Source of the DNA: Scyliorhinus canicula
Lineage: Eukaryota
Direction: 5' to 3'
Length of the DNA: 64,000 nt
NCBI RefSeq assembly: GCF_902713615.1
Contig: NC_052171.1
Location: 14,635,958 to 14,699,957, forward strand
The notes below the pieces were generated by a model. The model was not told the DNA's origin. It saw only the letters and a list, made by a program, of their open reading frames with translations, and did not search any database. The translations under genes were made by a program, and so were the position numbers. Each line of letters begins with the position of its first letter. Positions within the stretch are counted from its first letter, which is position 1. Shown here piece after piece: positions 1 to 60,978 of this stretch.

Positions 1-192
1 CCCACCAAGTTTGTCCTATACTACCAGGACCTGTTTCCTCATTCGCACAAAACTCAGACCATAGGGCCCACCCCTCCCCTCTAGTTACTTCCTAATTTCC
101 TCATCCCATATGGTACACTGTTCTGCTCTATTGGTCGCTGCGACCTCGGGTTGCTGTGGCTGCATACGGCGCCCCATGGCCTTCATTGCCAT
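1..192 (-). pseudogene. gag: N-terminal gag remnant of LTR retroelement 1 (runs off the window start)
   Basis: Minus strand reads MAMKAMGRRMQPQQPEVAATNRAEQCTIWDEEIRK*, then after a frameshift GWALWSEFCANEETGPGSIGQTWW. This is clearly homologous to the Gag start of element 2 at ~16518-16683 (MSPQQTEVEVINMSEKCTIWQDVPRKYLKGK/EWPLCEKVCVNSESGPWKIGQTWW). Confidence 0.8.
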
Positions 193-519
193 CTCTGCGA
201 TTATCTCTGTATCTCTACCGGGAATTTGGGACAGGGGAGGTAAAGTAGTGGTGCAAACAGAGGGTACGTCTAAAGCTATTTTCGGTTTAAACAATTCGAG
301 GGAAAGTTTCACGCAACTAAATCTATCGAGGTCACCTTAAATTCCTTGTTAGTACGCATGCAAATTACACACTACCGCACCTTGGAGGTTTCAATGACAC
401 TGGTCTTACGCTTGTTGTTTCCTTTACTTTTCCAATTTGGATTTCTAATTCAAACGCTTTGTGTGTTCACTCGGAGTGACACAGTCATTTCTGACTCGAG
501 TTCCGTCAGATGCGACAAT

Positions 520-9862: not shown

Positions 9863-10237
9863 CAGCACGGTTGCATAGTGGACGCAGCTCGGTAGCATAG
9901 TGGGGGCAACATGGTAGCATAGTGGGGGCAACACGGTAGCATAGTGGTTAGCACTGAGGATTCTCAGCGCCAGGATCCGACGTTCGATTCCCTGCTGGGT
10001 CACTGAACTTTGCGGAGTCTGCACGTTCTCCGTGTGCGTTTGCTCTGAGTGCGCCTGTTTACCGCCACAGTCCAAACGGTTGCAGCTTAGGTCGATTTGC
10101 TATGCCAAATTGTCCATAGTGTCCAAAACGTTTCGGAGGGGTTTTTGGGTTCGGGGACAGGGTGGAAGTGAGGGCTTACATGGGTCGGTGCAGACTCGAT
10201 GGGCTAAATCACCTCCTTCTGCACTGTAAGTTCTATG
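9863..10237 (+). mobile_element. V-SINE with tandemly reiterated 5' head
   Basis: Four ~21-nt copies of (GGGCA)RCAYGGTAGCATAGTG precede a diverged SINE body and a TTCTATG tail. Confidence 0.8.
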
Positions 10238-10727
10238 TTCATTCCGAATACCTGGAAACAGGAAATGCAATAAAAATTGAATGCTGGAGGCGCGTTAGAG
10301 ACAGGGAGGTGGACAGTGATCCGGGCATGCCACAGATATCCTATATCCCACTGTGAATTGTCGAAAATGTGTAACAAGCAGCTCAGAGAAGGAATAATAC
10401 CACGAATAGGTGAATTGTCTTCTTTGCAATGTCGGGAATATTAGGCATTGTACGAACTATAGCTCAGAAATGTGAGAGACGACTTGATTGAATTCTTTAA
10501 GATCATGTGGGACAATGGCAGTGTTAATGTGAAGAGGCTGTTTCCACCTATCGGGGAATCTGTAACTCGGGTTCACTGTTTAAACATAAACGGTCGCTCA
10601 TTTAAGATATAAATTAGAATTGCCTTACTTGTCTTTTCGGGCCCTCAGTCGCTCGAGCTCTCATTCTTTGCAAGTGGAAGCAAAGCGTTTGAATAATTTT
10701 TAAAGCAGAGCTCAATTGAATCTTCGG

Positions 10728-13570
10728 GAGAACATAGAACATAGAACGACACAGCGCAGTACAGGCCCTTCGGCCCACGATGTTGCACCGACATGGGAAG
10801 TCAAAAACGAAAGGCCATCTAACCTACACTATGCCATTATCATCCATATGCTTATCCAATAAACTTTTAAATGCCCTCAATGTTGGCGAGTGCACGACTG
10901 TTGCAGGTAGGGCATTCCACGGCCTCACCACACTTTACGTAAAAAACCTACCTTTGACCTCTGTCCTATATCTATTACCCCTCAATTTATGTCCCCTCGT
11001 GCTAGCCACCTCCATCCGCGGGAGAAGGCTCTCACTGTCCACCCTATCTAACCCTCTCTTTAGATCCTTCCTCGCTTCCTTGTATCTATCAAGCGCCCCA
11101 ACTGAAACTTCACGCCTCATCTTCACATAGGCCTCCTTCTTCCTCTTAACAAGAGATTCCACTTCTTTGGTAAACCACGGTTCCCTTCCTCTACCCCTTC
11201 CTCCCTGCCTGACTGGTACGTACTTATCAAGAACACGCAATAGCTGTTCCTTGAACAAGCTCCACATATCCAGTGTGCCCAACCCTTGCAGCCTACTTCT
11301 CCAACCTACACATCGTAAGTCATGTCTAATGGCATCATAATTGCCCTTCACCCAGCTATAACTCTTGTCCTGCGGGGTATACTTATCCCTTTCCATCACT
11401 AACGTAAAGGTCACCGAATTGTGGTCACTGTCTCCAAAGTGCTCACCTACCTCCAGATCTAACACCTGGCCTGGTTAATTACCCAAAACCAAATCCAATG
11501 TGGCCTCGCCTCTTGTTGGCCTGTCAACATATTGTGTCAGGAAACCCTCCTGCACACATTGTACAAAGAACGACCCATCTAATGTACTCGAACTATACAT
11601 TTTCCAGTCAATATTTGGAAAGTTAAAGTCTCCCATTTCAACTACCCTGTTACTTACACTCTTTTCCAGAATCATCTTCGCCATCCTTTCCTCGACATCC
11701 CTGGAACTATTAGGTGGCCTATAGAAAACTCCCAACAGGGTGACCTCTCCTTTCCTGTTTCTAACCTCAGCCCATACAACCTCGGAAGAAGAGTCCCCAT
11801 CTAGCATCCTTTCCGCCACCGTAATACTGTCCTTGACTAGCAGCGCCACACCTCCCCTCTTTTTCCCCCTTCTCTGAGCTTTATAAAACACCTAAACCCC
11901 GGAACCTGCAACAACCATTCCTGTCCCTGCTCTATCCATGTCTCTGAAATGGCCACAACATCGAAGACCCAGGTACCAACCCATGCTGCCAGTTCCCCTA
12001 CCTTATTTCGTGTACTCCTGGCATTGAAGTAGACACACTTCAAACCACCTACCTGAAAACTGGCACCCTCCTGCGAAGTCAAATCTGTGCTCCTGACCTC
12101 TATACTCTCAATCTCCCGTACCCCAAAACTACAATCCAGGTTCCCATGCCCCTGCTGAATTAGTTTAAAACCCCAAAGAGCACTAACAAATCTCCCCCCC
12201 AGGATATTGGTGCCCCTAAGGTTCAGATGTAGACCATCCTGTCTATAGAGGTCCCACCGTCCCCAGAAAGAGCCCCAGTTATCCAGAAATCTGAATCCCT
12301 CCCGTCTGCACCATCCCTGTAGCCACGTGTTTAATTGCTCTCTCTCCATATTCCTCGTCTCACTATCACGTGGCACGGGCAACATCCCAGAGATAACAAC
12401 TCTGTTTGTTCTCGTTCTGAGCTTCCATCCTAACTCCCTAAAGGCCTGCCTGACATCCTTGTCCCCTTTCCTACCTATGTCGTTAGTGCCAATGTGGACT
12501 ACGACTTGGGGCTGCTCCCTTGGGGGGGGGGGGGCCCTTAAGGACCCGGGAAACACGATCCGAGACATCACGTACCCTTGCACCTGGGAGGCAACATACC
12601 AAGCGTGAGTCTCTCTCGCTCCCACAAAATCACCTATCTGTGCCCCTGACTATTGAGTCCCCAATTACTAATGTTCTACTCCTTTCCCCCTTCCCTTCTG
12701 AGCAACAGGGACAGACTCCGTGCCAGAGGCCCGTACCCCATGGATTACCCCGGTAAGTCTTCCCCCCACAAGTATCCAAAACGGTATACTTGTTACTAAG
12801 GGGAATGACCACACGGGATCCCTGTACCCCAGCCCCTCTGATCGTCACCCCCTCTCACCGTCACCCATCTATCTTTATTCTTTGGCGTAACTACCTCCCT
12901 GAAGCTTGAATCTATGACCCCCCCCCCCCCCCTCTGCCTCCCGAATGATCCGAAGTTCATCCAGCTCAAGCACCAGGTCCCTAACACGGTTTCTGAGGAG
13001 CTGGAGTTGGGTGCACTTCCCACAGATGAAATCAGCAGGGACACTGACGGCGTCCCTCACATCAAACATTCTGCAGGAGGAGCATTGTACTGCCTTCCCT
13101 GGCATCACCTCTAGATTTAAAAAAAAAACCAAGAAAAAGAAAGGAAGAGCTTACCTGATATTCCCTCAAACCCTGCTCCCGCTGAAAGGTAAGCAAATTT
13201 AAAGGCACTCACTCACCTTCACGACAGGCCCCTGCTCCCGCTTCCCAACGACCGTGGTTTCTTTTTTGGTTAGAGGAAGAGGTAGGGTGAGAAACACTGA
13301 CGAAGTGTTTCGGGTTCAACTGTCACTTGACAACAGCCCCTCCACAAACCACCTTCAAATTAGGCTGACCGCACTGCACGTATGTAAATTTCCCCAGAAC
13401 AGCTGATCAGTAGCTCTGCTCTGCTGCCCTCTGCTGGATGCTTGCCTTCACTCAAACTCCTCGGGTTCATTTGCAGGTACACCTTCAAATTAGGCTGACC
13501 GCACTGCACATATGTAAATATCGCCAGAAAAGCTGATCAGTAGCTCTGTTCTGCTGCCCTCTGCTGGATG
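10728..13570 (-). mobile_element. CR1 LINE with 5' UTR, ORF1 and endonuclease; RT internally deleted
   Basis: ORF1 zinc finger CSSCRMF...CGKC and SGNH esterase motifs (IGDSIVRG, VVVHIGTND, DGLHLN). ORF2 APE motifs (YFNARS, ISETW, YRPPN, GDFNFP, SDH) run directly into the ORF2 C-terminus (GLDRVDSE). (TTCTATG)n tail; frameshifts present. Confidence 0.92.
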
Positions 13571-14063
13571 ATTATTGGTGGTAGGCAGGGACGTGTGATA
13601 CGGTTACAATCCGATCACCCATGATCTCATTGAGTGTCGAGGCAAATTCGATAGGCCGAGTGTCCGACTGCTGCCCCTAATTCATATTTTCAGGTTCGTG
13701 CTGGGAATTTCGGCAGATATCTAATGGTGGCGCTTTATTTGAATTGTCTCCGTCGATATATTATCAACTAGCAATGAAAATGGAAAATGCTGGGAAAACT
13801 TAACAAATCGTGCAGCATCTGGCTAGCGAGAGAGAGAAAAACAGACAGTCAATAAATGTTTCCAGCTCGGATTCATTTTTCGTTTCAGATTTCCAGAGTC
13901 CTTCCAGACAGAACAATGAATTGAGCAACTTCCCATGATTTGCTCGACCCGAACTCGACCCGTTTGTTTTCATTCCATTTTATTTTAACTGTATTTTACG
14001 AGTTATTTGTTTCTTGTCTTTCTTTGTATATATTTACCATCATTATTTCCCCTATCTTCTAGA

Positions 14064-14411
14064 CACGGTAGCACGGTAGCATTGTGGACAGCACAATCGC
14101 TTCACAGCTCCACGGTCCCAAGTTCGATTCCGGCTTGGGTCACTGTCTTTGCAGAGTCTGCACATCCTCCCCGTGTGTGCGTGGGTTTCCTCTGGGTGCT
14201 CCGGTTTCCTCCCACAGTCCAAAAATGTGCAGATTAGGTGGATTGGCTATGATAAATTGCCCTTAGTGTCCAAAATTGTCCTTAGTGTTGTGTGGGGTTA
14301 CTGGGTTATGGGGACAAGGTGGAGGTGTTAACTTCGGGTAGGGTGCTCTTTCCAGGAGCCTGTGCAGACTCGATGGGCCGAATGGCCTCCTTCTGTACTG
14401 TAAATTCTGTG
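14064..14411 (+). mobile_element. HE1-like V-SINE, subfamily B
   Basis: Head, V core and tail all present. Confidence 0.9.
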
Positions 14412-14696
14412 AAACACTTTCCATACCTCCCCCCCCCTTTTTCTCACTTTACTCCTCTCCCAGCAATCCTCCCTCCCCGCTCACATCTACATCTGTCAAA
14501 GTAGTTGGAACCAATCATGACCTCACACTTTGTAACTCCCTAATTACAACTTCATGCGATACACGGTTTGGATACCTTAATCTTGGTTCTATAACAAAAT
14601 TTCCGCAACAAGTACATAATGCAGTAGTGATGATTCAAGTATTGTCAAAAACATCCGATTATGACAGGGACAAGATGAGACTGTTTCAATCATAAT

Positions 14697-15052
14697 GGAC
14701 ATCACGGTAGCATTGTGGATAGTTCAATTGCTTCACAGCTCCGGGGTCCCAGGTTCGAGTCCGGCTTGGGTCAATGTCTGTGCGGAGTCTGCACATCCTT
14801 CCCGTGCGTGCGTGGGTTTTCTCCGGGTGCTCCGGTGTCCTCCCACAGTCTAAAGATGTGCAGGTTAGGTGGATTGATCATGCTAAATTATCCTTAATGT
14901 CCAAAATTGTCCTCAGTGTTGGGTGGGGTTACTGGGTTATGGGGATAGGGTGGAGGTGTTGAGCTCGGGTCGTGTGCTCTTTTCAAGACCCGGTGCAAAT
15001 TCAATGGGCCGAATGGCCTCCTTCTGCACTGTATATTCTATGATAATCTATG
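14697..15052 (+). mobile_element. HE1-like V-SINE, subfamily B
   Basis: Head, V core and tail all present. Confidence 0.9.
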
Positions 15053-15091
15053 AATTTGTCAATGCTTATTTGATGAACGGGCACATAAGGC

Positions 15092-15138
15092 ATCTCTGGG
15101 CAATCGGTCAGCGCCTTCGGCTGTTAACCACAAGGTTG
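15092..15138 (+). pseudogene. tRNA-Asn(GTT) truncated pseudogene
   Basis: ATCTCTGGGCAATCGGTCAGCGCCTTCGGCTGTTAACCACAAGGTTG matches the 5' two-thirds of tRNA-Asn including the anticodon loop CTGTTAA; the T arm is missing. Confidence 0.8.
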
Positions 15139-15732
15139 TCCTTCCTATGATTAGTTTGGCAAATCGCCCTTCATTCTCCCCTGATTCAGTTTCTAAATGT
15201 GTTTCTCAACATTCTCCATATTGTCCTTTTAAAAATCGTTATCATCCCTTGATGCATTGTTTTAATTAATCAATTAGATTGAATATTTCCAGCATGATTT
15301 TGACTCTTGTGCGAGGAACTTGTGTGGAGCCTCTGCATTGCCTGTCCGGTATATCCATGCCACGGATGGAAAACACATTTCAATGGTCAGTCCATTCATG
15401 AAAACAAATGGAACGTGGACGACAAATTAATGAGCGAACATAAGCAAAAGCATTGAAATGGGGAAATTAATGGGACTTAAGGATAACAGATCAGCAGACC
15501 AGAGCAACCCCATCCCAGGGTTTGAAAAATATTGGAGGGAAATTGTAGGACACCTAAGGTACCAATCTCTAAGATTCTATTCCTTTGGGGAGCTTTCATT
15601 CACTTACGAAAATTATCTATGGCACACCATTGTATAGAAATGGCGACAAAGAGAAATTTCACAATGAAACACAACTTACACGAGCACGGCGTGTCGGATG
15701 TTGATGTAATGCAGCGCAGATTAACCAGAAAT

Positions 15733-16206
15733 TGTATCAGGATATACACGCTCCTCATTATCCAGAATCCATTAGGGTGATTGACATCCTATCGATCTTT
15801 TGGGCCCCGACCTGGGACCGCCCAAAGGAGTGCGAAAGACTGAGGTTCGAGGAATTGAGTGAGCAACGCTCTGTCTCTTGAACTGGCCTCTGTCCAACAA
15901 CTGCATCAAATCAACTAGCCAAGTTCAAGGAATCGCAATCGCTCCCCGAAGGACGAACCTCAACCTAGATGTATCAGACAACATCCAGCCGCCACACCTG
16001 GGGAAGCAGATTAAAGCTTTATCCAGGTATATTAAACTGGCAGGTATAGTCTAATGTGTAGTAGCATGTAAGTTATTAAGTATAGAATGAATCCTACATT
16101 GTGTAATAAAGTATCATTATACTAATATACTGGTTGTGTGGTAATTTGTCCAATACGCGGAAAACACTAGCATATTGTGGTTTTGAATAAAGGTAGAAGT
16201 CCACCA
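15733..16206 (+). mobile_element. 5' LTR of retrovirus-like element 2 (left boundary uncertain)
   Basis: AATAAA at ~16105-16110 in a context similar to LTR 1; followed by PBS-like TGGTTCTGTTGGGACTCGA (~16210-16228) and then gag. Confidence 0.55.
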
Positions 16207-16517
16207 TATTGGTTCTGTTGGGACTCGACTAAAAGTGACTTTGTTACTCCGAAAGATCTCACAACTTTTATTAAATTGATAAAATGATAAACGAACCACA
16301 AGCGCGAGTTTCATATTGGCCAAATAACCGAATTTCGGAAGTGTCTTCTAAACGCATGCGGAACGAACAGGGAAGGATAGGGTAAACTCTGCAAACATGC
16401 ACGCAAATCCAAGGGATTGTGAACAGCGACATAGCCATGAGACGTACCCGTTGTTCGATCGACTGCCTCTGTTCCAAAATAAATAGTGAGCAAATTGCAG
16501 CGCAACTGATAAAGAAG

Positions 16518-18328
16518 ATGAGTCCACAGCAAACCGAGGTAGAAGTAATCAACATGTCAGAAAAGTGTACGATATGGCAGGATGTACCAAGGAAATACTT
16601 AAAGGGGAAGAATGGCCGCTATGTGAAAAGGTTTGTGTAAACAGCGAGTCAGGTCCATGGAAGATAGGACAAACTTGGTGGGTGGATTTATGCCAAATAC
16701 ATAAGAAGAATGCAACAAAGCTAAAGAAGCTAATGGCCATGCTGCGCTGCTTGGCCCAGCTAAGAGGAACGGCGAAGGTTTTGGAGATCTCAGCGGTCAG
16801 TTAATGCAGAAGGAGAAGGAGAGTAAGAAAATAGAAGAGGAACTCCAGGAGAAGTTCGCCGCGAAGGGCAGGGAATTTGTCGATGTTGAACGTGCCCACC
16901 AGTCCACCTTAATCCATCTTTGAAGCTTCCAAACCCACAACGACAAGGTCTACCAGGACACACAGCGTGAAATCTTGGTAAGAGAGGAAGGCGAACAGAA
17001 GGTCACCCACTTAGAGAGTAAATGTGCCAATGTACAGGCAGTTTTAAGAGCGCTCCCCCAATCCACTGAGGAGCAAACTACCGCTGACCACATCAAGTGC
17101 AAGCAATAAATAGATTGCAATCATTGTTATCAGTTCAAAACGGATTTATGTGTACGTTCGGGACAGGAGGGACAGAGGAAGAAGAAATGGCTGATCGGGA
17201 GGAGTTACAGGGACGCGCACAGATGTATGTAATAAGAACTGAAAGTCGAAACAACCGCCACCATCCACAGTAATAAATGGACATTCGCAACAGCAGGCCC
17301 GGTTGCACAGGCCACACCATCCCCAGTGAGTAGTGAAACTGCCACGGAAACCATAAATCCGGTCACAAAGGAAAGAAGGATAGGGAATACCCCAGGTCCT
17401 GCTATTACCTACGCCACCCTACTCACGGTAACCCAGTTAAAGGACGCATGTAACAAAATTACAACATTTGAGCCCAGTGCGGACCCACATTGCTTGTTTG
17501 AAGAGGTTCGCCAACGTAAAATTATGTATGGTTTCGATGAAAGGGAAGAGCTGAAATTAATAGTTATAATCGTTGGCCAATCCATACAACCAGTTTCATC
17601 TGAGCCCCAAAATGTAGGAGGGGGAGCACCAGACGAAAGGAAGGACGCCATATTAACTTCCATCGGTTCTCATAGAGGGGATCCTGCAGACGTTTAAATA
17701 AATGCAGACAGATGATCGGGGATCATCCGACTGCCTTTGCAGGTCGCCTCTAGATACGCTTTGAATTGTGCTAACTTAGATGATGAAGACTGTCCCAAAT
17801 TGGCCCGCACATTAGTTTCACATGCCACAGAAGCAGGTAGAAAGGCTTACACAAACTTTGACCCAGCAGAGCAGGCACGCAATGAACCATGGGTACTCGG
17901 ATGCTTATCTAGATCACGGGAACAAATACAACAAGACGGCATGGAAGGTGCCATGCACCCAGTTACGACTTATCAGGGACACGCATGGATAAAGGACGGT
18001 AGAGGAGATGAATAATATCCAAGGGAACAATAACCAAGCGAACACTACCCAGTAGAGCAAACCCCAGAGCACAGGTTCCACCTTACGCGCCCCGAGGGTC
18101 AAGTTACAACTGTGGGCAATCGGGAAAATTTGCCCGCAAATGCCGAGACAATCCGACACGTTGTCACCAATAGCGAAGACAACAGGACAGTTCACCCCCC
18201 CCCCCGACCCCGCGCGGAGACAATAGGCCTAATCACGCTCTCCGCCGCACCAGCGAAAAGGAAACGCTCGCCGCATGCATACCGCAAACGTCCGCGTTAA
18301 TGGTCTCGCATATAACTCCCTCGATTGA
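16518..18328 (+). pseudogene. gag: gag (frameshifted) with coiled-coil region and degenerate zinc knuckle
   Basis: Charged heptad stretch LMQKEKESKKIEEELQEKFAAK...LESKCANVQAVLRAL (16801-17055), capsid-like region ~17400-17930, knuckle remnant SYNCGQSGKFARKC (18102-18143), TGA at 18326-18328. Confidence 0.75.
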
Positions 18329-20130
18329 CGGTGTCCGGCCTCTCCATCGTGTGTCTGTGATACAAGATGGGATAATGTGGAGAAGCCGATATTCATAGAC
18401 AAAGTCCCGGGTTATTCTGTCGATTTTCTCTGCGAAGATTTTCCCTGGTCACGCAAAATTCATCTACCCTTCTACCTCGAATCCCCATGGCCAATTACTG
18501 ACACCATCACACCAAGCTGATTTACTGCAAAAATTCAGGAAGGATACATTACAGCCCCTATAGCTGTGCATGTTGGAAATATAGCCACTAATCATCGTGT
18601 GGTTTTGGTCGAAATAACCCCCCCCCCCCCCTCCCCACTGCACAACCCATTTTAGGAATGTATTTCATGAACTCCACTTACCTCTCATTCGACCCAGTAA
18701 ATATGCGTGTATGGCAGAAGTCGAGGATAACAAGGGTCCTTTAACACTACCAGTGGGTGATGATATAAATAGGATCTGTTCAGTGGGAGAATACTGGTTT
18801 TATCCTTCAACGATTAGCTCACTCAGCCATCAGGGAGGTGCTCACCCAGCACAAAACGGTATTTTCTTGGCATAAACACGATTGTTGGCAGATAGCACAA
18901 AAAGTGATGATTGCAGGTCTTGACCCAAAAGCAAAGAAAATATACGCTCTCCCCAACAGGCTGAGAGCGAAACTGCAAGAGTTATCTACAGTTTGCAAGA
19001 ATTTTCTGACTGCGAACGACACCTGCTTGCAATCTTCTGGTCAGTTAAATATTTCGCATAAATTACGGGCCTCAAGCCGGTCATAATCCTCGTCGAGCAC
19101 ACCCCGTTTCAACTCATTTTAGATTGGAGACTTAAGGACAACCAGGAGAGGGCAGCGCGCTGGAGATTAGCACTGCAAGGCCGGGATATATCTGCAAACC
19201 GGATCCAGGTCCCCACATTTTAGAAGGCAGTTTACAAGACGGAGGTATCCCAACTGAGTGCCATACCATTACAGGCAAACAGCAGACAGGACCCTTTATT
19301 CCCAGGCGACTAAAACCACGAGGAGGCAGCAAGAAACCAGCTAACCAACAACAAAAGGATACATTTAAAATCGATGTAGATGGCCCCTCCACCATTTAGG
19401 ATGGTATTATGATAACTGAACGCCGTATATAAATATATGGAGGATTCACAAGGACGTTCACTGGAAGAACTAGCTTTAAAATTGCCACGACATCACATAG
19501 CCCAAGCAGCAGAATTTGCAGCCATAGGGTATAAAGTCGCCCAACAGGAGACTTTCCCAATGCCTGCGGACATACACTCAGGCAGTATCTATGTCTGCAA
19601 TAGTTTGACCGAATTCTTCCCCCCGTGTTTTTCTGTCCGCCGCCGGGAAACCCTCAGCCCTTTTATTGAAATACGTCCTTACAGAAGCCCCCGGCGGCAG
19701 ATACTTTAAGTTAAAAGCCATCACCGCACGCCCCTATGCAGTAACTGCAAGGCAGACGCCTTAGCTCAAGCTGGAGGCCGCAATGGTCACTTCTGGAAGC
19801 CATGCGAAGGTCGGGAAATACATGCAATTCAGATGCCCCAAGCCAAAAATGATGACGAGTCCCTCAAATAAGTTTTAAACAGCAACGAACCTGCAAGAAC
19901 CAAATCACTAGAGAAGATGGCACAGTTTTTAAGTCATGAATCTATGTTGTCCCCACCCAGGACAGAAACGAACTGATATTCGACTTCCATGACGGGCACG
20001 GACACCCGTGGGATATACACTACCATTGCCCATTTAAAAACGTTGTGCTGTTGGCCTGAATTGAAACGCGACGTCATCCATTATGTTGAGAACAGCCTGG
20101 TTTCTTCTCAAATCAATCACGATCGTCATA

Positions 20131-21277
20131 CAAACAACAATGAACAAAGAACAAAGAAAATTACAGCACAGCAACAGGCCATTCGGCCCTCCCAGCCTAC
20201 GCCGATACAGATCCTTTATCTAAACCTGCCTTCTATTTTCCAAGGTCTACTTCCCTCTGTTCCCGCCCTTCATATACCTGTCTAGATGCTTCTTAAATGA
20301 TGCTATCGTGCCCGCCTCTACCACCTCCGCTGGTAAAGCGTTCCAGGCACCCACCACCATCTGCGTAAAAAACTTTCCACGCACATCTCCCTTAAACTTT
20401 CCCCCTCTCACCTTGAAATCATGACCCCTTGTAACTGACACCCCCACTCTTGGGAAAAGCTTATTGCTGTCCAGCCTGTCCATACCTCTCATAATTTTGT
20501 AGACCTCAATCAGGTCCCCCCTCAACCTCCGTCTTCCAACGAAAACAATCCTAATCTACTCAACCTTTCTTCATAGCTAGCACCCTCCATACCAGGCAAC
20601 ATCCTGGTGAACCTCCTCTGCACCCTCTCCAAGGCATCCACATCCTTCTGGTAATGTGGCGACCAGAACTGCACGCAGTATTCCAAATGTGGCCGAACCA
20701 AAGTCCTATACAACTGTAACATGACCTGCCAACTCCTGTACTCAATACCCCGTCCGATGAAGGCAAGCATGCTGTTTGCCTTCTTGACCACTCTATCAAC
20801 CTGCGTTGCCACCTTCAGGGCACAATGGACCTGAACTCCCAGATCTCTCTGCACATCAATTTTCCCCAAGGCCCTTCCATTGGCCATATAGTCCGCTCTT
20901 GAATTTGATCTTCCAAAATGCACCACCTCGCATTTGCCTGGATTGGACTGCATCTGCCATTTCTCTGCCCAACTCTCCAACCTATCTATATTTTGTTGTA
21001 TTCTCTGACAGTCCTCCTCGCTATCTGCAACTGTACCAATCTTAGTATAATCTGCAAACTTGCTAATCAGACCACCTATTCATTCCTCCAGGCCATTTAT
21101 GTAGATCACAAACAACAGTGGTCCGAGCACGGATCCCTGTGGAACACCGCTAGTCACCCTTCTCCATTTTGAGACACTCCCTTCCACCACTACTCTCTGT
21201 CTTCTGTTGCCCAGCCAGGTCTTTATCCATCTAGCTCGTACACCCTGAACCCCATACGACTTCACTTTTTCCATCAA
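20131..21277 (-). mobile_element. 5'-truncated CR1 LINE inserted in the integrase region
   Basis: [14 protein letters not shown] and LVRPHLEYCVQFWSP motifs; (TTCTTTG)n tail. Confidence 0.92.
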
Positions 21278-21984
21278 GGATTAAGGCGCAACCTTCCTGC
21301 AGAAAGCCCCTTGACAGATCTTCAAATCGATTACAACTGTCCCCTCCAACACTGCACAAATGGTTTCGAAAACGTTCTCGTCGTTATTGATACGTTTACT
21401 GCATTGGTAAAAGTCTTCTCCAGCCGCAGGAACGCAGAATAGCTACAGCTAAAATCCTGACCCATCAAATATTCATGCGCTAGAGTCTTTCCCGCAACAC
21501 TGAATCAGATCAAGGGGCACATTTCACCGGCAGGGTAATGCAAAATGTAATGGCACTGTCTGGGATAAAGCAGAATTTCCATATAGCATACCACCCAGTC
21601 CAGTGGAATAGGCGAGCGCATGGACTGCACTTTAAAATCGATTATCAGGAAGACAGTGCAGCAAAACAACACCACATTGGACACAATAATTCCCTTCGCC
21701 CTCATGATCATTAGGAACACGCTTTCCAGCTCCACAGTCTGTACCCCTCACATACTTGTGAGAAGCAGGCCCATGAAAGGATTTGAGTATTTGTCAGCGC
21801 CGGATATGGCCAACACCACAATGACAGCCCTCACCCATGAAAAAGCAGTACAGCTGTTCACTGAAAACATTAAAGCAGCACAACCGACTGCTGCTGTCCG
21901 ACGAAGCACCAGGAAAAGGCAAAGATAAGTCTACTTCGATAAAAATGTGCGCTCCATAGAATATACAGATGACCAGCAAGTTAC

Positions 21985-22190
21985 CAGTCCAAAAATGTGC
22001 ACGTTATGTGGATTGGACATGATTAATTGCCCTTAGTGTCCAAAATTGCCCTTAGTGTTGGGTGGGGTTACTGGGTTATGGGAATAGGGTGGAGGTGTTA
22101 ACCTTGGGTAGGGTGCTCTTTCCAGGAGCCGGTACAGACTAGATGGGCCGAATGGCCTCCTTCTGCACTGTAAATTCTATGATCTATGAT
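21985..22190 (+). mobile_element. 5'-truncated V-SINE, subfamily B
   Basis: 3' half of the SINE body and the TTCTATG tail. Confidence 0.85.
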
Positions 22191-23903
22191 CATCTCGCTG
22201 GAAAACCCAAGCTCCTTCCTATCCCCTAAATTCGCCGGCACCTTCACCATCTCTGACAAAGTGAGCCCCTCCGTTTACATACCCTAACGGCAAGACTGTT
22301 TGGTTCAACACCAATCAGCTCAAAGCCTACGGACCCCAATGTAACCACGCCCATCACGTCACCTTGGCAATGGGAGACGGCGACGCCCGGCCCACCGACC
22401 AACCACTTCCACCTCATGATGGCTTACTTCTCTTTGCCCAACCCACTCCTGCTGACACCACGCTTCACCTTGATTCAGAGAAGGTGCCTAATCTTGACAG
22501 CGAACAGAGCGACTTGATTTATCTTTCTGATAATAGTGAATCTGGAGGCCCCATTGAAACAGCATGCCCTTTCCCAAGACACTGACTTTATTTACTTAGG
22601 TCGAATGACTGACTGGCGCACCCTCACTCCCCTAGTCGCATTGCTTCCACATTCCTGAAACCAGACCATTAACGCCCTACAATCCGCCTATCCTTCAACA
22701 CCCCAGTATGATACCGTAATCCTACTCGCAGAACGGTAAGAACAGAAGAGTCGTAGAACCACACAGCGAACAGCCCGATTAATGTCGTGAATCCTAAGAC
22801 GCCCGTCTAGTGGCCATGAGAGGCGAATGATACAGTGGATGAGCCTCTTCTGGGGATATTAGCATAACTGTTTCGGCATGCATTGTTCTAAGGTGTGTGC
22901 AACGCTACTATGTGAGGTGTCCATATGATGAACAGTGGACGCCTACTATGAATTAACGTTTCCAATTTCTGATGCAGCCTGTCACATCTTCGTTTTTCTC
23001 TAATGTTACAACATGGTTTAAATTCATGCCTTCCCGACATTGCATCGTCTCACAGAACGCATGATTCTCATGCATCCCTACCAGTCGCCGGAACACTTCG
23101 GTAACATATCCGTCAGGACACAGAGCCAGACTCCTTCTGTATAACTACCCGGTTTCGGCCCCTGTGCAGCTCCAGTTTGGGAACTTCGTGCTTCACTGTG
23201 AACTGGAATCCCCAGAGAAATGAATCCATATGCAGACACATTCTTCCTGTTCTTATACGGTCACGCGGGTCTGGAAACATGGCACTAAACCGCGCCCTGC
23301 CTGAGGACTCCAAACCGGTTAAGCAATACTCGGGTAGTAGAGACACGGCATTTCCCTCGCCCCCCCCTGGGATCCCACACATTCATCACCCGCGGCCCAA
23401 ACGCACCTCAGTACACCCCATACTATCTGGAATATCTTTCTACGTTCTATACAGACCTGGGAAGGTCTTAATCTTGTCTTCAAGTCTGATCTAAACTTAC
23501 TGATTGGTTGTGGGAAGACGAATGTATTCACTGAACGGACTAACCGATCTAAATCCTTGCCTATTTCACCCGTCTTTCCAGACCCCCTTGGGTCGCTCCC
23601 ACATGCTATTTATACTTTGGAAGCACCAGTTGTTGATTACTGATGCTCCGAAAACACGGGCTCTCCTAAAAATTCAGCCCCTGTCAAATTGCAACTTCTG
23701 TGCCAAAATAAATTCCTCTCCGCTCCCGGTACGAAACTCTATAAAACTCGCCGCCATAAGATTCAGCTAGTAACTAACAACCACAACCACACATGGTTTT
23801 GCTCAAGGTGGAGATAGGTGGAAGAAAGTGTTCGACCAGTCCCACCCTCGGTCAGACAGGCTTGAGAAACACGTATAATTATTCGTTTTTACTCCTGCAC
23901 TTT

Positions 23904-24556
23904 ACATAAGAACATAAGAACTAGGAGCAGGAGTAGGCCCTCGAGCCTGTTCCGCCATTCAATTAGATCATGGCTAATCTTTTGTGGACTCAGCTCCACT
24001 TTCCGCCCCGAACACCATAACCCTTAATCCCTTTATTCTTCAAAAAACTATCTATCTTTACCTTAAAAACATGTAATGAAGGAGCCTCAACTGCTTCACT
24101 GGGCAAGGAATTCCATAGATTCACAACCCTTTGGGTGAAGAAGTTCCTCCTAAACTCAGTCCTAAATCTACTTCCCCTTATTTTGAGGCTATGTCCCCTA
24201 GTTCTGCTGTCACCCGCCAGTGGAAACAACCTGCCCGCATCTATCCTATCTATTCCCTTCATAATTTTAAATGTTTCTATAAGATCCACCCTCATCCTTC
24301 TAAATTCCAATGAGTACAGTCCCAGTCTACTCAACCTCTCCTTATAATCCAACCCCTTCACCTCTGGGATTAACCTAGTGAATCTCCTCTGCATACCCTC
24401 CAGCGCCAGTACGTCCTTTCTCAAGTAAGGAGACCAAAACTGAACACAATACTCCAGGTGTGGCCGCACTAACACCTTGTACAATTGCAACATAACCTCC
24501 CTAGTCTTAAACTCCATCCCTCTAGCAATGAATGACAAAATTCCATTTGCCTTCTT
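23904..24556 (-). mobile_element. Young CR1 LINE 3' fragment
   Basis: 182-aa ORF2 C-terminus nearly identical to those in 27255-29832 and 34102-34942; (TTCTTATG)n tail. Confidence 0.95.
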
Positions 24557-24559
24557 TAG

Positions 24560-25725
24560 TTTGCACTTCTTGTCACTCTCCTAAATATAATGAAAACAAA
24601 ATCTGCGATTCACGCATATTGACAACCAACATAATTATAAAAGGGAATTCAATCCAGGAGAGGAAGATTCATAAAATACAATTGTTAAACACAAGAATAT
24701 CACGATACGATGCTTATTCACTCGAACAACCACGGACGACAGACAAAACCAGAGGATGAATCGAGGTACAATCATCATCATGAATATTATTATAGCGACG
24801 GCAATCAAATCACAGGACAAGGTGTTCTCTGTATTCAGGCTATCTCTGGTTTGTCCCAACAAGTGCAGGAGAATGTGAGGGCGGTACATTAAGCGTCAAC
24901 GGTAGCATTGTGGATAGCACAATTGCTTCAGAGCTCCAGGGTTCCAGGTTCGATTCCCGGATTGGGTCACTGTCTGTGCGGAGTCTGCACGTTCTCCCCG
25001 TGGCTGTGTGGGTTTCCTCCGGGTGCTTCGGTTACCTCCCACAATCCAAAGATGTGCATATTATGTGGATTGGTCATGATAAATTGCCCTTAGTGTCCAA
25101 AACTGCCCTTCGTGTTGGTTGGGGTTACTGGGTTATGGGGATAATAGGGTGGAGGTGTTGACCTTTGGTAGGGTCGTCTTTCCAACAGCCATTGCAGACT
25201 CGATGGGCCAAATGGCCTCCTTCTACACTTTAAATTATGTGGAAAAACCAAAGCAGAAGCATCTTTTACGGGTGTTACACTCAAAGGGCAATGCACAAAA
25301 GGCCCAATGGAACCTCATTAGAATGCTATATTAGCACCTCCGAAAAAAGAGATAGGTGGAAATTTCCAAATGAAGGGTGTCCTGAAATTGGATGTTCAGC
25401 ACAAAGCCCAGAAAGAGGATTAGGAATTGGATCACGGGACATTCACAGAGGGTAACTTGACTCTTTGCAAAATCAGGACAAGACCTAAGCCAGCCCCAAA
25501 CACCAGAGAACAGAACCAAAATATCATCCGACAATTGTTAGAAACCGAGACCAGCACCTGGTGGGACGACATTGGAATTTGGTGCCCCAATCCTCGAAAC
25601 CACCCAGTAACATGCCTCATCTCCGAACATAGCCAAAGTTCTCATCCTGATTGCGCTAATAAATACTTGAAATGTGGTCACTTTATTAATACACGGAGAA
25701 CTCTCACGCACGGTGGTTATTAAGA
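24560..25725 (+). pseudogene. Possible env-like remnant of element 2 (split by a SINE)
   Basis: Lies downstream of integrase; heptad-like IQAISGLSQQVQENVRAV and NQNIIRQLLETETSTWWDDIGIW...HP followed by hydrophobic residues; heavily decayed. Confidence 0.4.
24897..25240 (+). mobile_element. HE1-like V-SINE, subfamily B
   Basis: Head, V core and tail all present. Confidence 0.88.
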
Positions 25726-27254: not shown

Positions 27255-29832
27255 CATAAGAACATGAACACAAGAACTAGGAGCAGGAGTAGGCCATCTG
27301 GCCCCTCGAGCCTGCTCCGCCATTCAATTCGATCATGGCTGATCTTTTGTGGACTCAGCTCCACTTTCCAGCCCGAACACCATAACCCTTAATCCCTTTA
27401 TTCTTCAAAAAACTATCTATCTTTACCTTAAAAACATGTAATGAAGGAGCCTCAACTGCTTCACTGGGCAAGGAATTCCATAGATTCACAACCCTTTGGG
27501 TGAAGAAGTTCCTCCTAAACTCAGTCCTAAATCTACTTCCCCTTATTTTGAGGCTATGCCCCCTAGTTCTGCTGTCACCCGCCAGTGGAAACAACCTGCC
27601 CGCATCTATCCTATCTATTCCCTTCATAATTTTAAATGTTTCTATAAGATCCCCCCTCATCCTTCTAAATTCCAACGAGTACAGTCCCAGTCTACTCAAC
27701 CTCTCCTCATAATCCAACCCCTTCAGCTCTGGGATTAACCTAGTGAATCTCCTCTGCACACCCTCCAGCGCCAGTACGTCCTTTCTCAAGTAAGGAGACC
27801 AAAACTGAACACAATACACCAGGTGTGGCCGCACTAACACCTTATACAATTGCAACATAACCTCCCTAGTCTTAAACTCCATCCCTCTAGCAATGAAGGA
27901 CAACATTCCATTTGCCTTCTTAATCACCTGTTGCACTTGTAAACCAACCTTCTGTGACTCATGCACTAGCACACCCAAGTCTCTCTGAACAGCGGCATGC
28001 TTTAATATTTTATCGTTTAAATAATAATCCCGTTTGCTGTTATTCCTACCAAAATGGATAACCTCACATTTGTCAACATTGTATTCCATCTGCCAGACCC
28101 GAGCCCATTCACTTAACCTATCCAAATCCCTCTGCAGACTTCCAGTATCCTCTGCACTTTCCGCTTTACCACTCATCTTAGTGTCATCTGCAAACTTGGA
28201 CACATTGCCCTTGGTCCCCAACTCCAAATCATCAATGTAAATTGTGAACAATTGTGGGCCCAACACGGATCCCTGAGGGACACCACTAGCTACTGATTGC
28301 CAACCAGAGAAACACCCATTTATCCCAACTCTTTGCTTTCTATTAATTAACCAATCCTCTATCCATGCTACTACTTTACCCTTAATGCCATGCATCTTTA
28401 TCTTATGCAGCAACCTTTTGTGTGGCAGCTTGTCAAAGGCTTTCTGGAAATCCAGATATACCACATCCATCGGCTCCCCGTTATCTACTGCACTGGTAAT
28501 GTCCTCAAAAAATTCCACTAAATTAGTTAGGCATGACCTGCCTTTAACGAACCCATGCTGCGTCTGCCCAATGGGACAATTTCTATCCAGATGCCTCGCA
28601 ATTTCTTCCTTGATGATAGATTCCAGCATCTTCCCTATTACCGAAGTTAAACTCACTGGCCTATAATTTCCTGCTTTCTGCCTACCTCCTTTTTTAAACA
28701 GTGGCGTCACGTTTGCTAATTTCCAATCCACCGGGACCACCCCAGAGTCTAGTGAATTTCGGTAAATTATCACTAGTGCATCTGCAATTTCCCTAGCCAT
28801 CTCTTTTAGCACTCTGGGATGCATTCCATCAGGGCCAGGAGACTTGTCTACCTTTAGCCCCATTAGCTTGCCCATCACTCCCTCCTTCGTGATAACAGTC
28901 CTCTCAAGGTCCTCACCTGTCATAGCCTCATTTCTATCAATCGCTGGCATGTTATTTGTGTCTTCCACTGTGAAGACCGACCCAAAAAACCTGTTCAGTT
29001 CCTCAGCCATTTCCTCATTTCCCATTATTAAAACTCCCTTCTCATCCTCTAAAGGACCAATATTTACCTTAGCCACTCTTTTTTGTCTTATAGATTTGTA
29101 AAAACTTTTACTGTCTGTTTTTATATTCTGAGCAAGTTTACTCTCATACTCTATCTTACTCTTCTTTATAGCTTTTTTAGTAGCTTTCTGTTGCCCCCTA
29201 AAGATTTCCCAGTCCTCTAATCTCCCAGCAATCTTTGCCACTTTATATGCTTTTTCCTTCAATTTGATACTCTCCCTTATTTCCTTAGATATCCACGGTC
29301 GATTTTCCCTCTTTCTTCCGTCCTTCCTTTTTGTTGGTATAAACCTTTGCTGAGCACTGTGAAAAATCGCTTGGAAGGTTCTCCACTGTTCCTTAACTAT
29401 TCCACCATAAAGTCTTAACTCCCAGTCTACCTTAGCTAGTTCTTCTCTCATCCCCTTGTAATCTCCTTTGTTTAAACACAAAACACTAGTATTTGATTTT
29501 ACTTTCTCACCCTCCATCTGTATTTTAAATTCCACTATATTGTGATCGCTCCTTCCGAGAGGATCCCTAACTATGAGATCATGAATCAATCCTGTCTCAT
29601 TACACAGGACAAGATCTAGGACCGCTTGTTCCCTCGTAGGTTCCATTACATACTGTTCTAGGAAACTATCGCGGATACATTCTATAAACTCCTCCTCACG
29701 GTTGCCTTGACCGACCTGGTTAAACCAATCGACATGTAGATTAAAATCCCCCATGATAACTGCTGCACCATTTCTACATGCATCAGTTATTTCTTTGTTT
29801 ATTGCCTGCCCCACCATCTCGTTACTATTTGG
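27255..29832 (-). mobile_element. Young 5'-truncated CR1 LINE
   Basis: Uninterrupted ORF2 from mid-endonuclease to the stop codon, plus 3' UTR and tail. Confidence 0.97.
27355..29832 (-). CDS. CR1 ORF2 (partial endonuclease + complete reverse transcriptase), no native start
   Basis: 830-aa open frame with [42 protein letters not shown] and KFADD motifs. Confidence 0.85.
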   Translation of the reverse strand, partial: PNSNEMVGQAINKEITDACRNGAAVIMGDFNLHVDWFNQVGQGNREEEFIECIRDSFLEQYVMEPTREQAVLDLVLCNETGLIHDLIVRDPLGRSDHNIVEFKIQMEGEKVKSNTSVLCLNKGDYKGMREELAKVDWELRLYGGIVKEQWRTFQAIFHSAQQRFIPTKRKDGRKRENRPWISKEIRESIKLKEKAYKVAKIAGRLEDWEIFRGQQKATKKAIKKSKIEYESKLAQNIKTDSKSFYKSIRQKRVAKVNIGPLEDEKGVLIMGNEEMAEELNRFFGSVFTVEDTNNMPAIDRNEAMTGEDLERTVITKEGVMGKLMGLKVDKSPGPDGMHPRVLKEMAREIADALVIIYRNSLDSGVVPVDWKLANVTPLFKKGGRQKAGNYRPVSLTSVIGKMLESIIKEEIARHLDRNCPIGQTQHGFVKGRSCLTNLVEFFEDITSAVDNGEPMDVVYLDFQKAFDKLPHKRLLHKIKMHGIKGKVVAWIEDWLINRKQRVGINGCFSGWQSVASGVPQGSVLGPQLFTIYIDDLELGTKGNVSKFADDTKMSGKAESAEDTGSLQRDLDRLSEWARVWQMEYNVDKCEVIHFGRNNSKRDYYLNDKILKHAAVQRDLGVLVHESQKVGLQVQQVIKKANGMLSFIARGMEFKTREVMLQLYKVLVRPHLVYCVQFWSPYLRKDVLALEGVQRRFTRLIPELKGLDYEERLSRLGLYSLEFRRMRGDLIETFKIMKGIDRIDAGRLFPLAGDSRTRGHSLKIRGSRFRTEFRRNFFTQRVVNLWNSLPSEAVEAPSLHVFKVKIDSFLKNKGIKGYGVRAGKWS

Positions 29833-30580
29833 TGTCCTCTCCAACAATATGGCCCCTCTCGTTTGTAAATAATGAAGAAAAATACTTTTTCAAGACCTCT
29901 CCTATCTCTTCAGACTCAATACACAATCTCCCGCTACTGTCCTTGATCGGACCTACCCTCGCTCTAGTCATTCTCATATTTCTCACATATGTGTAAAAGG
30001 CCTTGGGGTTTTCCTTGATCCTACCCGCCAAAGATTTTTTAATGCCCTCTCTTAGCTCTCCTAATCCCGTTCTTCAATTCACTCCTGGCTATCTTTTATC
30101 CCTCCAGCGCCCTGTCTGAACCTTGTTTCTTCAGCCTTACATAAGTCTCCTTCTTCCTCTTTACAAGACATTCAACCTCTCTTGTCAACCATGGTTCCCT
30201 CACTCGACCATCTCTTCCCTGCCTGACAGGGACATACATATCAAAACCATGCAGTTCCTTGAACAAGTTCGACATTTCACTTGTGTACATCCCTGACAGC
30301 GTATGTTCCCAACTTCTGCACTTCAATTCTTGTCTGACAGCATTGTATTTACCCTTCCCCCAATTGTAAACCTTGCCCTGTTGCGCACACCTATTCCTCT
30401 CCATTACCAAAGTGAAAGTCACAGAATTGTGGACACTACCTCCAAAATGCACCCCCACTAACAAATCTATCACCTGCCCTGGTTCATTACCAAGTACTAA
30501 ATCCAATATGGCCTCTCCTCTGGTCGGACAACCTATATACTGTGTTACAAAAGCTTCCTGGACACACTGCACAAACACTT
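29833..30580 (-). mobile_element. CR1 ORF2 internal fragment (different subfamily)
   Basis: PTRGEAILDLVLGNEPGQV and IKENPKAFYTYVRN; similar to the CR1 at 10.7-13.6 kb. Confidence 0.85.
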
Positions 30581-34942: not shown

Positions 34943-35052
34943 TTAAATAAAGATATCCAGGAGTTTGAAAAGAAATGAAACGTTTCTGATGTTTTTACTG
35001 TAATCAACTAGGCTATGTAAAGTCACAGTATTGGGGGCTGAAGAAAACCGCA

Positions 35053-35943
35053 GTGAAGGCTGAAACTACCGGCTCTCCTCTCGCTATCTTAAACGCTGCA
35101 ACGCCCGGCTCTCCTCTTACTGTTTTCAGTTGTGAAACTCCCGGCTCTCCTGTCGCTGTTTTAAACACTGAAACTCCCGGCTCTCCTCTCACTGTTTTAA
35201 ACACTGGAACTCCCGGCTCTCCTCTCGCTGTTTTAAACACTGAAATTCCCGGCTCTCCTCTCACTGTTTTAAACACTGAAACTCCCGACTCTCCTCTCGC
35301 TGTTTTAAAAACTGAAACTCCCGGCTCCCCACTCGCTGTTTTAAACACCCGGCTCTCTTCTCACTGTTTTGAACACTGAAACTCCCAGTTCTCCTCTCGC
35401 TGTTTTAAACACTGAAATTGCCGGCACTCCTGTCGCTGTTTTAAACACTCGGCTCTCCTCTCACTGTTTTGAACACTGAAATTCCCACCTGTCCTCTCAC
35501 TGTTTTAAACACTGAAACTGCCGGCTCTCCTGTCGCTGTTTTAAGCACTGAAACTCCCGGCTCTCCTCTCGCAGTTTTTAAAAATAAAACACCCGTCTCT
35601 CCTCTCAATCTTTTAAACACTGAAACATCCGGTACTCACCTCATTGTTTTAAACTGTGAAACTCCCGGCTCTCCTCTCGCTCTTTTAAACACAGAAACTC
35701 CCGGCTCTCCTCTCGCTGTTTTAATCACCCGGCTCTCCACTCGCTGTTTCAAACACTGAAACTCCCGGCACTCCTCTCCCTGTTTTCAACACTGAAACTC
35801 CCAGCTCTCCTCTCGCTGCTTTCAACTGCGAAACTCCCGCCTCTCCTCTCGCTGTTTTAATCTGTGAAACTGCAGGCTGTCCTCTCACTGTTTTCAGCTG
35901 TGAAACTCCCGACCCTCCTCTCGCTGTTTTAATCACTGAAACT
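35053..35943. repeat. 36-bp minisatellite, about 25 copies
   Basis: Unit TTTTAAACACTGAAACTCCCGGCTCTCCTCTCGCTG, with shorter variants lacking TGAAACTC at ~35341, ~35441 and ~35721. Confidence 0.95.
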
Positions 35944-35949
35944 TATTGT

Positions 35950-59554: not shown

Positions 59555-60385
59555 TGGATGTTGAATCTTGCATGTCTCCTCATCCTACGCAATAAATATG
59601 AAATATGTACTGCGCTCGCCATTGTGTTTAACGAAAATATGTAGATCAGGCTTTTTCAGGTTGAGTTCTTGAAATTTGGAAGCAATTTGATACCATGCAT
59701 ATATTTTGTCAAATACAGTATTATATTGTTTCACAGGACATTCGCTTAGTATTATTTGCCGTATGATATTTTCGTCCTTATTTTATTCTTTCTTTTCCGT
59801 GTGGTTGCGCCAATTGACATTCGATCCATAGATTAGACCGAATCTCGCAAAGGACTTACCGTAAAGAACATGATGTAATCTATTTGCTACACATCTAAAA
59901 CACCGAGCTTTCATCAGCCAAGTCTCTACTGGACTCAAATACAGAACATTACCATGCCTCGCAGATAATTACGCCAGGACATGTGCTGACCACACCAGCT
60001 GCAAACAATACAGTGATGGGAAAACCATGTAAAAAAATGTTTCCCTGAAATTAGGGCTACGTTTATTGTAGCCGTGCCAGATAAAACGCCTGAAGGTATT
60101 GTCAATTAATGTGTTTTGTATCTTAGTCATAAACAAGGCTTTTTTTAATTGAATCAAAGAAATTCGGAGCAGAAATAATTCCTTTTGCCTCAAATGCCTT
60201 CCCAACCATTCAACAAGAGCGTGTTCTACCGGTCTCTGGTCATAACTCAATTTTACTGCTTGTCATCCATAACACCTGACTGCGTCAGATATTAAGATCA
60301 TGCCGATCTCAGTCTTTAATGAATGCTGTGACACATCCTACACAGACCTGCTTCCGAAATCAAACATTTTGTCATCAACTACCCT

Positions 60386-60978
60386 CACATGAATACACAC
60401 ACATATACACTCACCCATATAAACACACACATACACGCACATACAGACAAAGACATACACAGATACTCACACCCATGAACGCATAACCATGCATCCACAC
60501 ACAAATACACACATAAACACTCAGATGCATACGCGCATACACACCGTCCTGCACACCCATTCACAGACACACATACACAGCCAACCAGACATACACACCG
60601 GCATATTCACACATACACACACATTATAAATGCCCGCACATGCACGTAAACAGATGCACACTACCATATGCACACAGACGCGCACACCCACAGGCACACA
60701 AACATGCAAAATCGTACACATGCTGACACACATAGATACACGCACATACACGCACGCATAAACACACACATACACGCGCCCCTGCCCATATCCACATGCA
60801 TACATGCACGCATAAATGCACACACCCATAAACATACATACAAAAACATGCTGTCACACGCACACATCCATATATCCACACATATATAGACAAAAGCACA
60901 CACGGAAACACGTAAACACATGCATGCACAGCACATACACAGACACGTATACAGACACAACCCACTAAGAACAGACAT
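60386..60978. repeat. Long degenerate (CA)n-rich tract
   Basis: About 590 bp of interrupted CA/TA/CG dinucleotides. Confidence 0.9.

Follow-up and report, generated by a model that had tools for sequence, protein, structure and literature searches.

Anatomy of the element in the window

The region considered here is a 64,000-nucleotide stretch of the genome of the catshark Scyliorhinus canicula (assembly GCF_902713615.1, contig NC_052171.1, positions 14,635,958 to 14,699,957 of the forward strand), referred to as a whole as the window, which harbors a heavily decayed long terminal repeat (LTR) element at window positions 15733-25725 of the plus strand. An earlier note on this DNA, drawn up from the sequence alone, had described retrovirus-like coding motifs in this interval; all were located at the positions given there, all on the plus strand and in shifting frames. 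The element is a dead copy, deleted for its reverse transcriptase (RT), of a large catshark family of class III-type endogenous retroviruses (ERVs), which carries a third open reading frame (ORF), ORF3, downstream of gag and pol. Its features are listed below in window coordinates.

15733..16205, plus strand: 5′ LTR, decayed, beginning with TG; ends approximate
16210..16224, plus strand: primer binding site, decayed, of tRNA-Arg type in intact copies; position and flanks as in sister copy L017, judged by eye
16490..18320, plus strand: gag, with coiled coil, helical capsid-like region and one CCHC zinc knuckle; stops and frameshifts, ends approximate
18329..18994, plus strand: protease and start of RT (pol residues 1-216), broken; pol match at 18329-18984
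18994..18996, plus strand: deletion junction, at which about 950 nt, comprising RT and half of the tether, are gone (pol residues about 217-532 missing)
18996..19200, plus strand: latter half of the tether, a degenerate RNase H of Ty3 type
19375..19790, plus strand: RNase HI-type domain, broken; ends approximate
19895..20137, plus strand: zinc-binding region of integrase
20138..21277, minus strand: CR1-type long interspersed nuclear element (LINE) fragment inside integrase; the CR1 label is our own reading of the ORF
21281..22366, plus strand: integrase core and SH3-like tail, split by a short interspersed nuclear element (SINE) at about 21985-22183
22367..22830, plus strand: pol tail, acidic and Pro-rich; end approximate
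22950..23900, plus strand: post-pol region without a conserved long ORF, containing a duplicated hairpin motif
23904..24556, minus strand: second CR1-type LINE fragment
24756..25665, plus strand: ORF3, long form, a predicted small type I membrane protein

Intact Gag and Pol proteins from copy L047 of the same genome align in order along the window (tblastn), Gag mapping to 16589-18143 and residues 533-967 of Pol to 18996-20255. The loss of RT is seen in the alignments to sister copies L015, L019, L021, and L029, all of which jump at 18994/18996, while window positions 15741-16182 match both terminal repeats of sister copies L017, L023/24, L025/26, and L027/28. No 3′ LTR was found for the window copy, and of its LTR hallmarks the element retains only the decayed 5′ LTR and primer site. 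The CCHC knuckle is degenerate, and ORF3 is broken by a SINE at 24899-25244 and by a frameshift at the membrane anchor. The approximately 3 kb of extra sequence noted previously after pol is present, but about 1 kb of it represents CR1 and SINE insertion.

Young and intact members of the family

The family has many relatives in the genome, including young copies with open pol frames of 1,400 amino acids (aa). Genome searches were scored for their best 143 to 150 candidates only, and the first-look candidate totals of 48,116 and 51,899 are not copy numbers. Frames of at least 1,400 aa were present in 15 of the best 143 matches to an RT query from an older sister copy and in about 73 of the best 150 matches (hand count) to a second RT query. 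Eight young copies were selected for long pol frames, in five of which both LTRs (about 960 nt) were seen, with pair identities of 98.8-99.8%. In these copies the LTRs have TG...CA ends and a purine tract is present; four of the five show an exact 4-bp target duplication. The intact layout is LTR-gag-(TGA)-pol-ORF3-LTR, and young-copy gag and pol are under purifying selection (nonsynonymous divergence, dN, 0.015; synonymous divergence, dS, 0.157).

In all six young copies compared, gag and pol occupy the same frame across a single TGA codon, and TGA-CGG is a leaky stop context. The primer site corresponds to tRNA-Arg(TCT) at 18 of 18 positions in one of the eight young copies (L057, complementary to the end of the tRNA-Arg(TCT) gene plus CCA) and at 17 of 18 in another; five copies (L043, L045, L049, L051, and L055) carry variant sites with a small insertion and changes relative to tRNA-Arg(TCT), which may correspond to another tRNA isoform, and no site was found in the remaining copy. 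Three of the four loci matching the tRNA-Arg 3′ pattern (L076, L077, and L078) contain no tRNA gene according to ARAGORN and may be primer-site or tRNA-derived fragments.

The domain content of Pol agrees with the earlier description, which had proposed two RNase H folds followed by an integrase with a tail. Pfam identifies RT_RNaseH (E value, 2.8e-7) and then RNase_H (6.1e-11) in the ORF of a sister copy, and RT_RNaseH_2 (2.4e-22), RT_RNaseH (6.4e-18), and RNase_H (6.8e-16) in intact Pol, which further matches Integrase_H2C2, rve, and SH3_Tf2-1. The altered catalytic positions attributed to the tether are also borne out: Ala, His, and Glu occupy the three sites, whereas the second RNase H retains its acidic residues. 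The tether is, as judged from these residues, catalytically dead.

The single zinc knuckle claimed for Gag holds for the intact protein (Pfam E value, 1.1e-7). The proposed long coiled coil is consistent with a low-confidence structural model of Gag, in which residues 121-239 are predicted to form a continuous helix of 119 residues; a Foldseek search with this model gave no match at an E value of ≤0.001. A Gag profile search returned zinc-knuckle and coiled-coil matches only, leaving the capsid fold unconfirmed. The four homologues of Gag in the database all derive from Scyliorhinus torazame (72-79% identity), in keeping with the cartilaginous-fish host that had been proposed.

Several observations concern the young copies individually. 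Their LTR types differ (72-98% mutual identity), while their internal regions are much more alike (L045, L047, L116, L123, L124, L128, and L129), which suggests LTR exchange among young subfamilies. The young copy L057/L058 is itself interrupted, at about 9867-18610 of the pair, by a different ERV whose gag, pol, and env-like frames are long and whose 584-nt repeats are 99.7% identical. Contigs from four runs, whose RNA origin is a guess, span a young copy and barely touch the window copy; they are not treated as evidence.

Phylogenetic placement of the RT

Because the window copy has no RT, trees were built with a young copy and with an older sister that is 72-80% identical to the window in DNA sequence. 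A quick tree of 85 rows was drawn from 196 proteins (bit score of at least 154 and at least 225 columns, plus 18 chosen Gypsy rows), and a careful tree of RT plus tether was built from 43 rows chosen by hand from this set. Six proteins with the lokiretrovirus (Loki) RT motifs of the supplement of Wang and Han served as Loki rows, and the row for snakehead retrovirus (SnRV) was matched by eye to an entry in that supplement.

In the RT-plus-tether tree, retroviruses and Loki form a clade with 100/100 support relative to eight Gypsy rows, and the shark element lies inside it, on the retroviral side to which the earlier note had assigned it. Within this clade, canonical retroviruses including the shark element are grouped with 98/93 support and Loki falls outside (100/100), a placement repeated in the quick tree, where it received a Shimodaira-Hasegawa-like approximate likelihood ratio test (SH-aLRT) value of 95 and where the old and young shark RTs are sisters (SH-aLRT, 100). 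Frog and coelacanth proteins join the shark element in a 9-row clade (96/97); the gamma/epsilon (class I) rows, labeled by our own assignment, form a separate 100/100 clade without it, and foamy and FLERV-like rows likewise stand apart. Approximately unbiased (AU) tests reject a grouping of the shark element with Loki (P = 5.5e-5) and of the 9-row clade with Loki (P = 0.005). A tree of the RNase H domain (24 rows) places Loki in a clade of its own, with no resolution at the base.

The RT motif of the shark family agrees with that of SnRV and canonical retroviruses and differs from that of Loki, and among RTs of solved structure the best match is foamy Pr125Pol (1e-41), followed by murine leukemia virus (1e-26) and Ty3 (1e-18). 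A Loki RT query of the genome gave, among the best 150 scored matches, identities of 38-42% only, apparently to this same shark family. On the evidence of its RT sequence, the shark family is a canonical retrovirus and a class III-type ERV, rather than a lokiretrovirus or, probably, an Odin element, while a link to SnRV is neither shown nor rejected by these comparisons.

The post-pol region and the lack of a full env in the copies read

Collinear young copies have a distance of about 1.6 kb between pol and the 3′ LTR. This region was surveyed in 27 copies (20 taken by RT rank and 7 from earlier work), and no Env-sized frame was present between pol and the 3′ LTR in the copies read; the old, intermediate, and young lineages are alike in this respect. 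ORF3 DNA lies between pol and the LTR in 16 of the 27 copies, the others being truncated, interrupted, or of the intermediate lineage. Since the family nests among canonical retroviruses, the missing env is most plausibly a secondary loss. An RPKR motif at about window position 23390, considered as a furin site and thus a sign of env, is not kept in sister copies and is attributed to chance; two fish-env motifs were absent from the Loki supplement of Wang and Han.

Between pol and ORF3, a duplicated hairpin motif is kept across three lineages (L047:9500-9800; window about 23240-23450). Covariation is weak, with few compensatory changes, and Rfam returned no match in the post-pol region. The motif is possibly an RNA export or packaging element, the export role being a guess.

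ORF3, a putative membrane protein under selection

From its sequence, ORF3 is predicted to start with a signal peptide, followed by an ectodomain that varies, a single transmembrane helix, and a tail of basic character. Older lineages have a long form of 218 aa with six cysteines, and the form of intermediate and young lineages is short (about 114 aa), with the anchor and tail common to both. By eye, the ectodomain following the signal-like start measures about 35-40 aa in the short form and about 150 aa in the long form.

ORF3 is retained in three lineages. Among six old copies, dN/dS falls with distance, from 0.88 for the 3 pairs belonging to one lineage, through 0.42-0.54 for 7 pairs farther apart, to 0.28-0.35 for the 5 most distant pairs; such a gradient would be expected if source elements were under selection and their copies then decayed neutrally. 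Shared variants in a set of 17 young copies (16 chosen by RT) comprise 30 synonymous and 16 replacement changes over 83 and 259 sites, respectively (ratio, about 0.17, with 16 multi-change codons excluded), compared to 15 synonymous and 12 replacement changes among private variants. Insertions or deletions not of three letters were present in 8 of the 16 RT-picked copies, several as compensating pairs. An earlier dN/dS value of 0.12 from 11 young copies was biased, because those copies had been picked by protein score, and is superseded by the 17-copy count. These substitution patterns indicate that ORF3 is kept by purifying selection on the element.

No homologue was found at an E value of ≤10 among proteins of 62-200 aa, Pfam gave no match above its cutoff, no PDB sequence matched, and no usable Atlas match was obtained for the long form. 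An initial impression of an immunoglobulin-like ectodomain gained no support. For the product of ORF3, the most likely role is that of an accessory protein at the surface, perhaps derived from env by trimming, rather than that of a fusogen.

Surroundings of the window copy

Approximately 30 kb of the window (273-29838) recurs 280 kb away as a segmental duplication with 92-94% identity (L133, L011, L012, and L134). The twin of the element there has the same RT deletion and no CR1 at the integrase position; because it lies inside the duplication, it does not represent an independent insertion. Another decayed family member (L131) lies on the minus strand at window positions 1-201 and in the sequence upstream, with gag and RT remnants followed by a jump to integrase. 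A CR1-type LINE ORF2 fragment with an open frame of 844 aa lies at 27355-29889 (minus strand), and a 36-bp tandem array and a CA-rich array lie at 34955-36058 and 60373-60929, respectively. Elsewhere, the integrase and env-like frames of another ERV are found downstream of an old copy (L030:3448-5684, minus strand).

Proposed explanation and alternatives

It is proposed, with considerable confidence, that the window copy derives from a large class III-type catshark ERV family whose examined copies lack a full env and which probably multiplies inside cells in the manner of a retrotransposon. Env loss accompanies high copy number in ERVs. Under this proposal, Gag-Pol would be made by read-through of the in-frame TGA, tRNA-Arg would prime reverse transcription, and the resulting particles would insert again in the germ line with no phase outside the cell.

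A number of points weigh against this proposal or narrow its basis. The careful tree and AU tests were run under LG+G4 with no mixture model; reference labels were set by eye against the supplement or by motif, those beyond Loki and SnRV being our own assignments; and the trees contain no Odin or elephant-shark (CmiERV) rows, with CGIN1 and class II also left out. SnRV falls in a polytomy of the RT-plus-tether tree, and the AU test does not reject a wider clade with SnRV (P = 0.32). The integrase points in another direction, as a tree of 29 rows places two Loki rows in a 10-row group with shark, frog, and coelacanth (88/92, unstarred), and the shark integrase is 47% identical to that of Loki, compared to 33% for SnRV and 35% for foamy virus; by sequence it groups with lokiretrovirus integrase, albeit without strong support. 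The copies read number a few dozen out of very many, so that rare env-bearing members may still occur. A genome search with PF00523 (Fusion_gly) gave no match, but as its controls were silent too it provides no evidence. The old ORF3 copies used for dN/dS were chosen for their long open frames, and the ORF3 model is unusable outside the membrane helix (predicted local distance difference test score, 42).

The earlier note had favored a lokiretrovirus or Odin-like sister lineage, the first in a cartilaginous fish. The dual RNase H, the Loki-grouping integrase, a coiled-coil Gag as in the Loki-related Bik-1, and an absence of env as in Odin agree with such an assignment. Dual RNase H is, however, common to all retroviruses and thus no pointer to Loki or Odin, Loki being defined by RT position and an F-type Env, according to Wang and Han (PMC7947760). 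Similarly, coiled-coil Gag is reported from Loki-related, foamy, and ERV-L-related elements (Chang et al., bioRxiv 2024.03.25.586437) and is consequently not diagnostic. Given that the RT-plus-tether tree and AU tests oppose it, that the RT motif is of the SnRV/canonical type, that the Loki RT query met only distant matches, that no F-type env was found in the copies read, and that Wang and Han report no lokiretrovirus in six chondrichthyan genomes, including that of the catshark carrying this Gag, a Loki or Odin identity is very unlikely. The RT thus nests in a described clade, which the earlier note had named as an outcome contrary to its proposal, while the integrase remains Loki-like. From cartilaginous fish, class III and SnRV-like ERVs are known already (PMC4422223 and PMC11089739). 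That the family might be an ordinary Ty3/Gypsy retrotransposon, which the Ty3-type score of its tether and its lack of env could recall, has next to no probability, being refuted by its position in the tree and by the second RNase H.

Two further alternatives concern the mode of spread. The family might still be an infectious retrovirus with unsampled env-bearing members, the env-less copies being defective passengers; the small number of candidates scored per search leaves room for such members, and the signal peptide, anchor, and tail of ORF3 are what an env deletion product would be expected to show. This is nonetheless improbable, as an env-length frame is lacking in all three lineages, among the copies read, and young copies without env keep both gag and pol intact and under purifying selection, so that they can be autonomous for intracellular copying. 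Somewhat less remote, yet still unlikely, is that ORF3 acts as a small fusogen or adhesion protein which replaces Env and passes capsids from soma to germ cells, by analogy to sORF2 of Drosophila MDG1 elements. Its single membrane helix with a juxtamembrane basic tail, its size of 114-218 aa, its position downstream of pol, and its retention under purifying selection would fit this role, for which env-less insect elements offer a precedent (PMC11952523). Against it stand the signal-peptide-like start, the Pro/Thr-rich ectodomain of variable length (around 30 residues and rather constant in sORF2 and the FAST [fusion-associated small transmembrane] proteins), the absence of a visible myristoylation-type start, and the failure to find any sequence link. 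A broader scenario, to which we give a similarly low likelihood, would combine a long-ago loss of Env with a selected membrane protein for Env-independent entry into the germ line, enabling the catshark expansion, in a slowly evolving vertebrate lineage that may be the source or closest relative of the Loki/CGIN1 integrase. The preferred explanation remains intracellular multiplication of an env-less class III-type ERV family.

The placement corrects a tempting misfiling, as dual RNase H and coiled-coil Gag do not mark lokiretroviruses. It also gives the class III ERVs of cartilaginous fish, noted as abundant and low in diversity (PMC11089739), a concrete anatomy: that of a young env-less family of which many copies are intact. 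With its Loki-like integrase, the lineage is worth sampling when the origin of the lokiretrovirus and CGIN1/NYNRIN integrases is addressed. ORF3, an orphan selected in three lineages, can be tested alone; should it act like sORF2 or FAST proteins, spread without Env would be a feature of vertebrate Retroviridae as well as of insect retrotransposons. No published description of the shark family, of ORF3, or of the grouping of its integrase with that of Loki was found in a search that did not extend to Repbase, Dfam, or most subscription journals.

Comparison with known systems

Foamy virus Gag is not known to carry a CCHC knuckle, whereas shark Gag has one, and the shark RT lies outside the foamy virus/FLERV clade. 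With SnRV, the shark family shares the RT motif and 48% RT identity, yet SnRV stands in a polytomy of the tree and the integrases are just 33% identical; SnRV is also said, in work by Hart et al. from 1996, to have an Arg primer and a large coiled coil in Gag. The nearest relatives are the frog and coelacanth “NYNRIN-like” Pols (P0007-P0010, P0015, and P0017), known here from database annotations alone, with 50-58% RT identity and the same domain string; the next closest is the SnRV-matching protein.

Lokiretroviruses resemble the shark family in their tether and acquired RNase H, their coiled-coil Gag, and their integrase, but differ in their separate RT clade (a joint grouping being rejected by the AU tests), in other RT motifs, and in an F-type Env of about 550 aa, for which the criterion is a paramyxovirus F-like protein (PF00523) with an RXKR site (PMC7947760). 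Odin, described as sister to Loki (PMC9040795), similarly combines gag and pol, dual RNase H, and a lack of env, but occurs in sea anemones, whereas the shark family falls among canonical retroviruses (in a tree without Odin rows). The sORF2 proteins of the MDG1 group (Voichek et al., PMC11952523) and FAST proteins share with ORF3 a small size, membrane association, and a basic juxtamembrane tail, and sORF2 likewise occurs in env-less LTR elements; they differ in a constant ectodomain of around 30 aa and frequent myristoylation, as opposed to the signal peptide and longer, variable ectodomain of ORF3. The sORF2 elements are Metaviridae, while the shark family belongs to vertebrate Retroviridae, and no homology between them was detected.

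The closest known setting is that of the class III/clade Huo ERVs, clade Huo and SnRV-like elements having been defined by Xu et al. (PMC6001957) and by Naville and Volff (PMC4977317). Cartilaginous fish are reported to have high ERV copy numbers, mostly of clade III (Blanco-Melo et al., PMC11089739), and an SnRV-related lineage is known in the elephant shark (Han 2015, PMC4422223). With these ERVs, including CmiERV lineage I, the shark family shares a canonical-retrovirus RT outside class I and a cartilaginous-fish host. CmiERVs are, however, defined by having env, in place of which the shark family has a small membrane ORF, and compared with class III/clade Huo ERVs its recent expansion is very large. 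The family is, therefore, a known kind of element in a known host group, and a variant of that kind in being env-less, widely and recently expanded, and endowed with an orphan, selected ORF3 and a Loki-like integrase.

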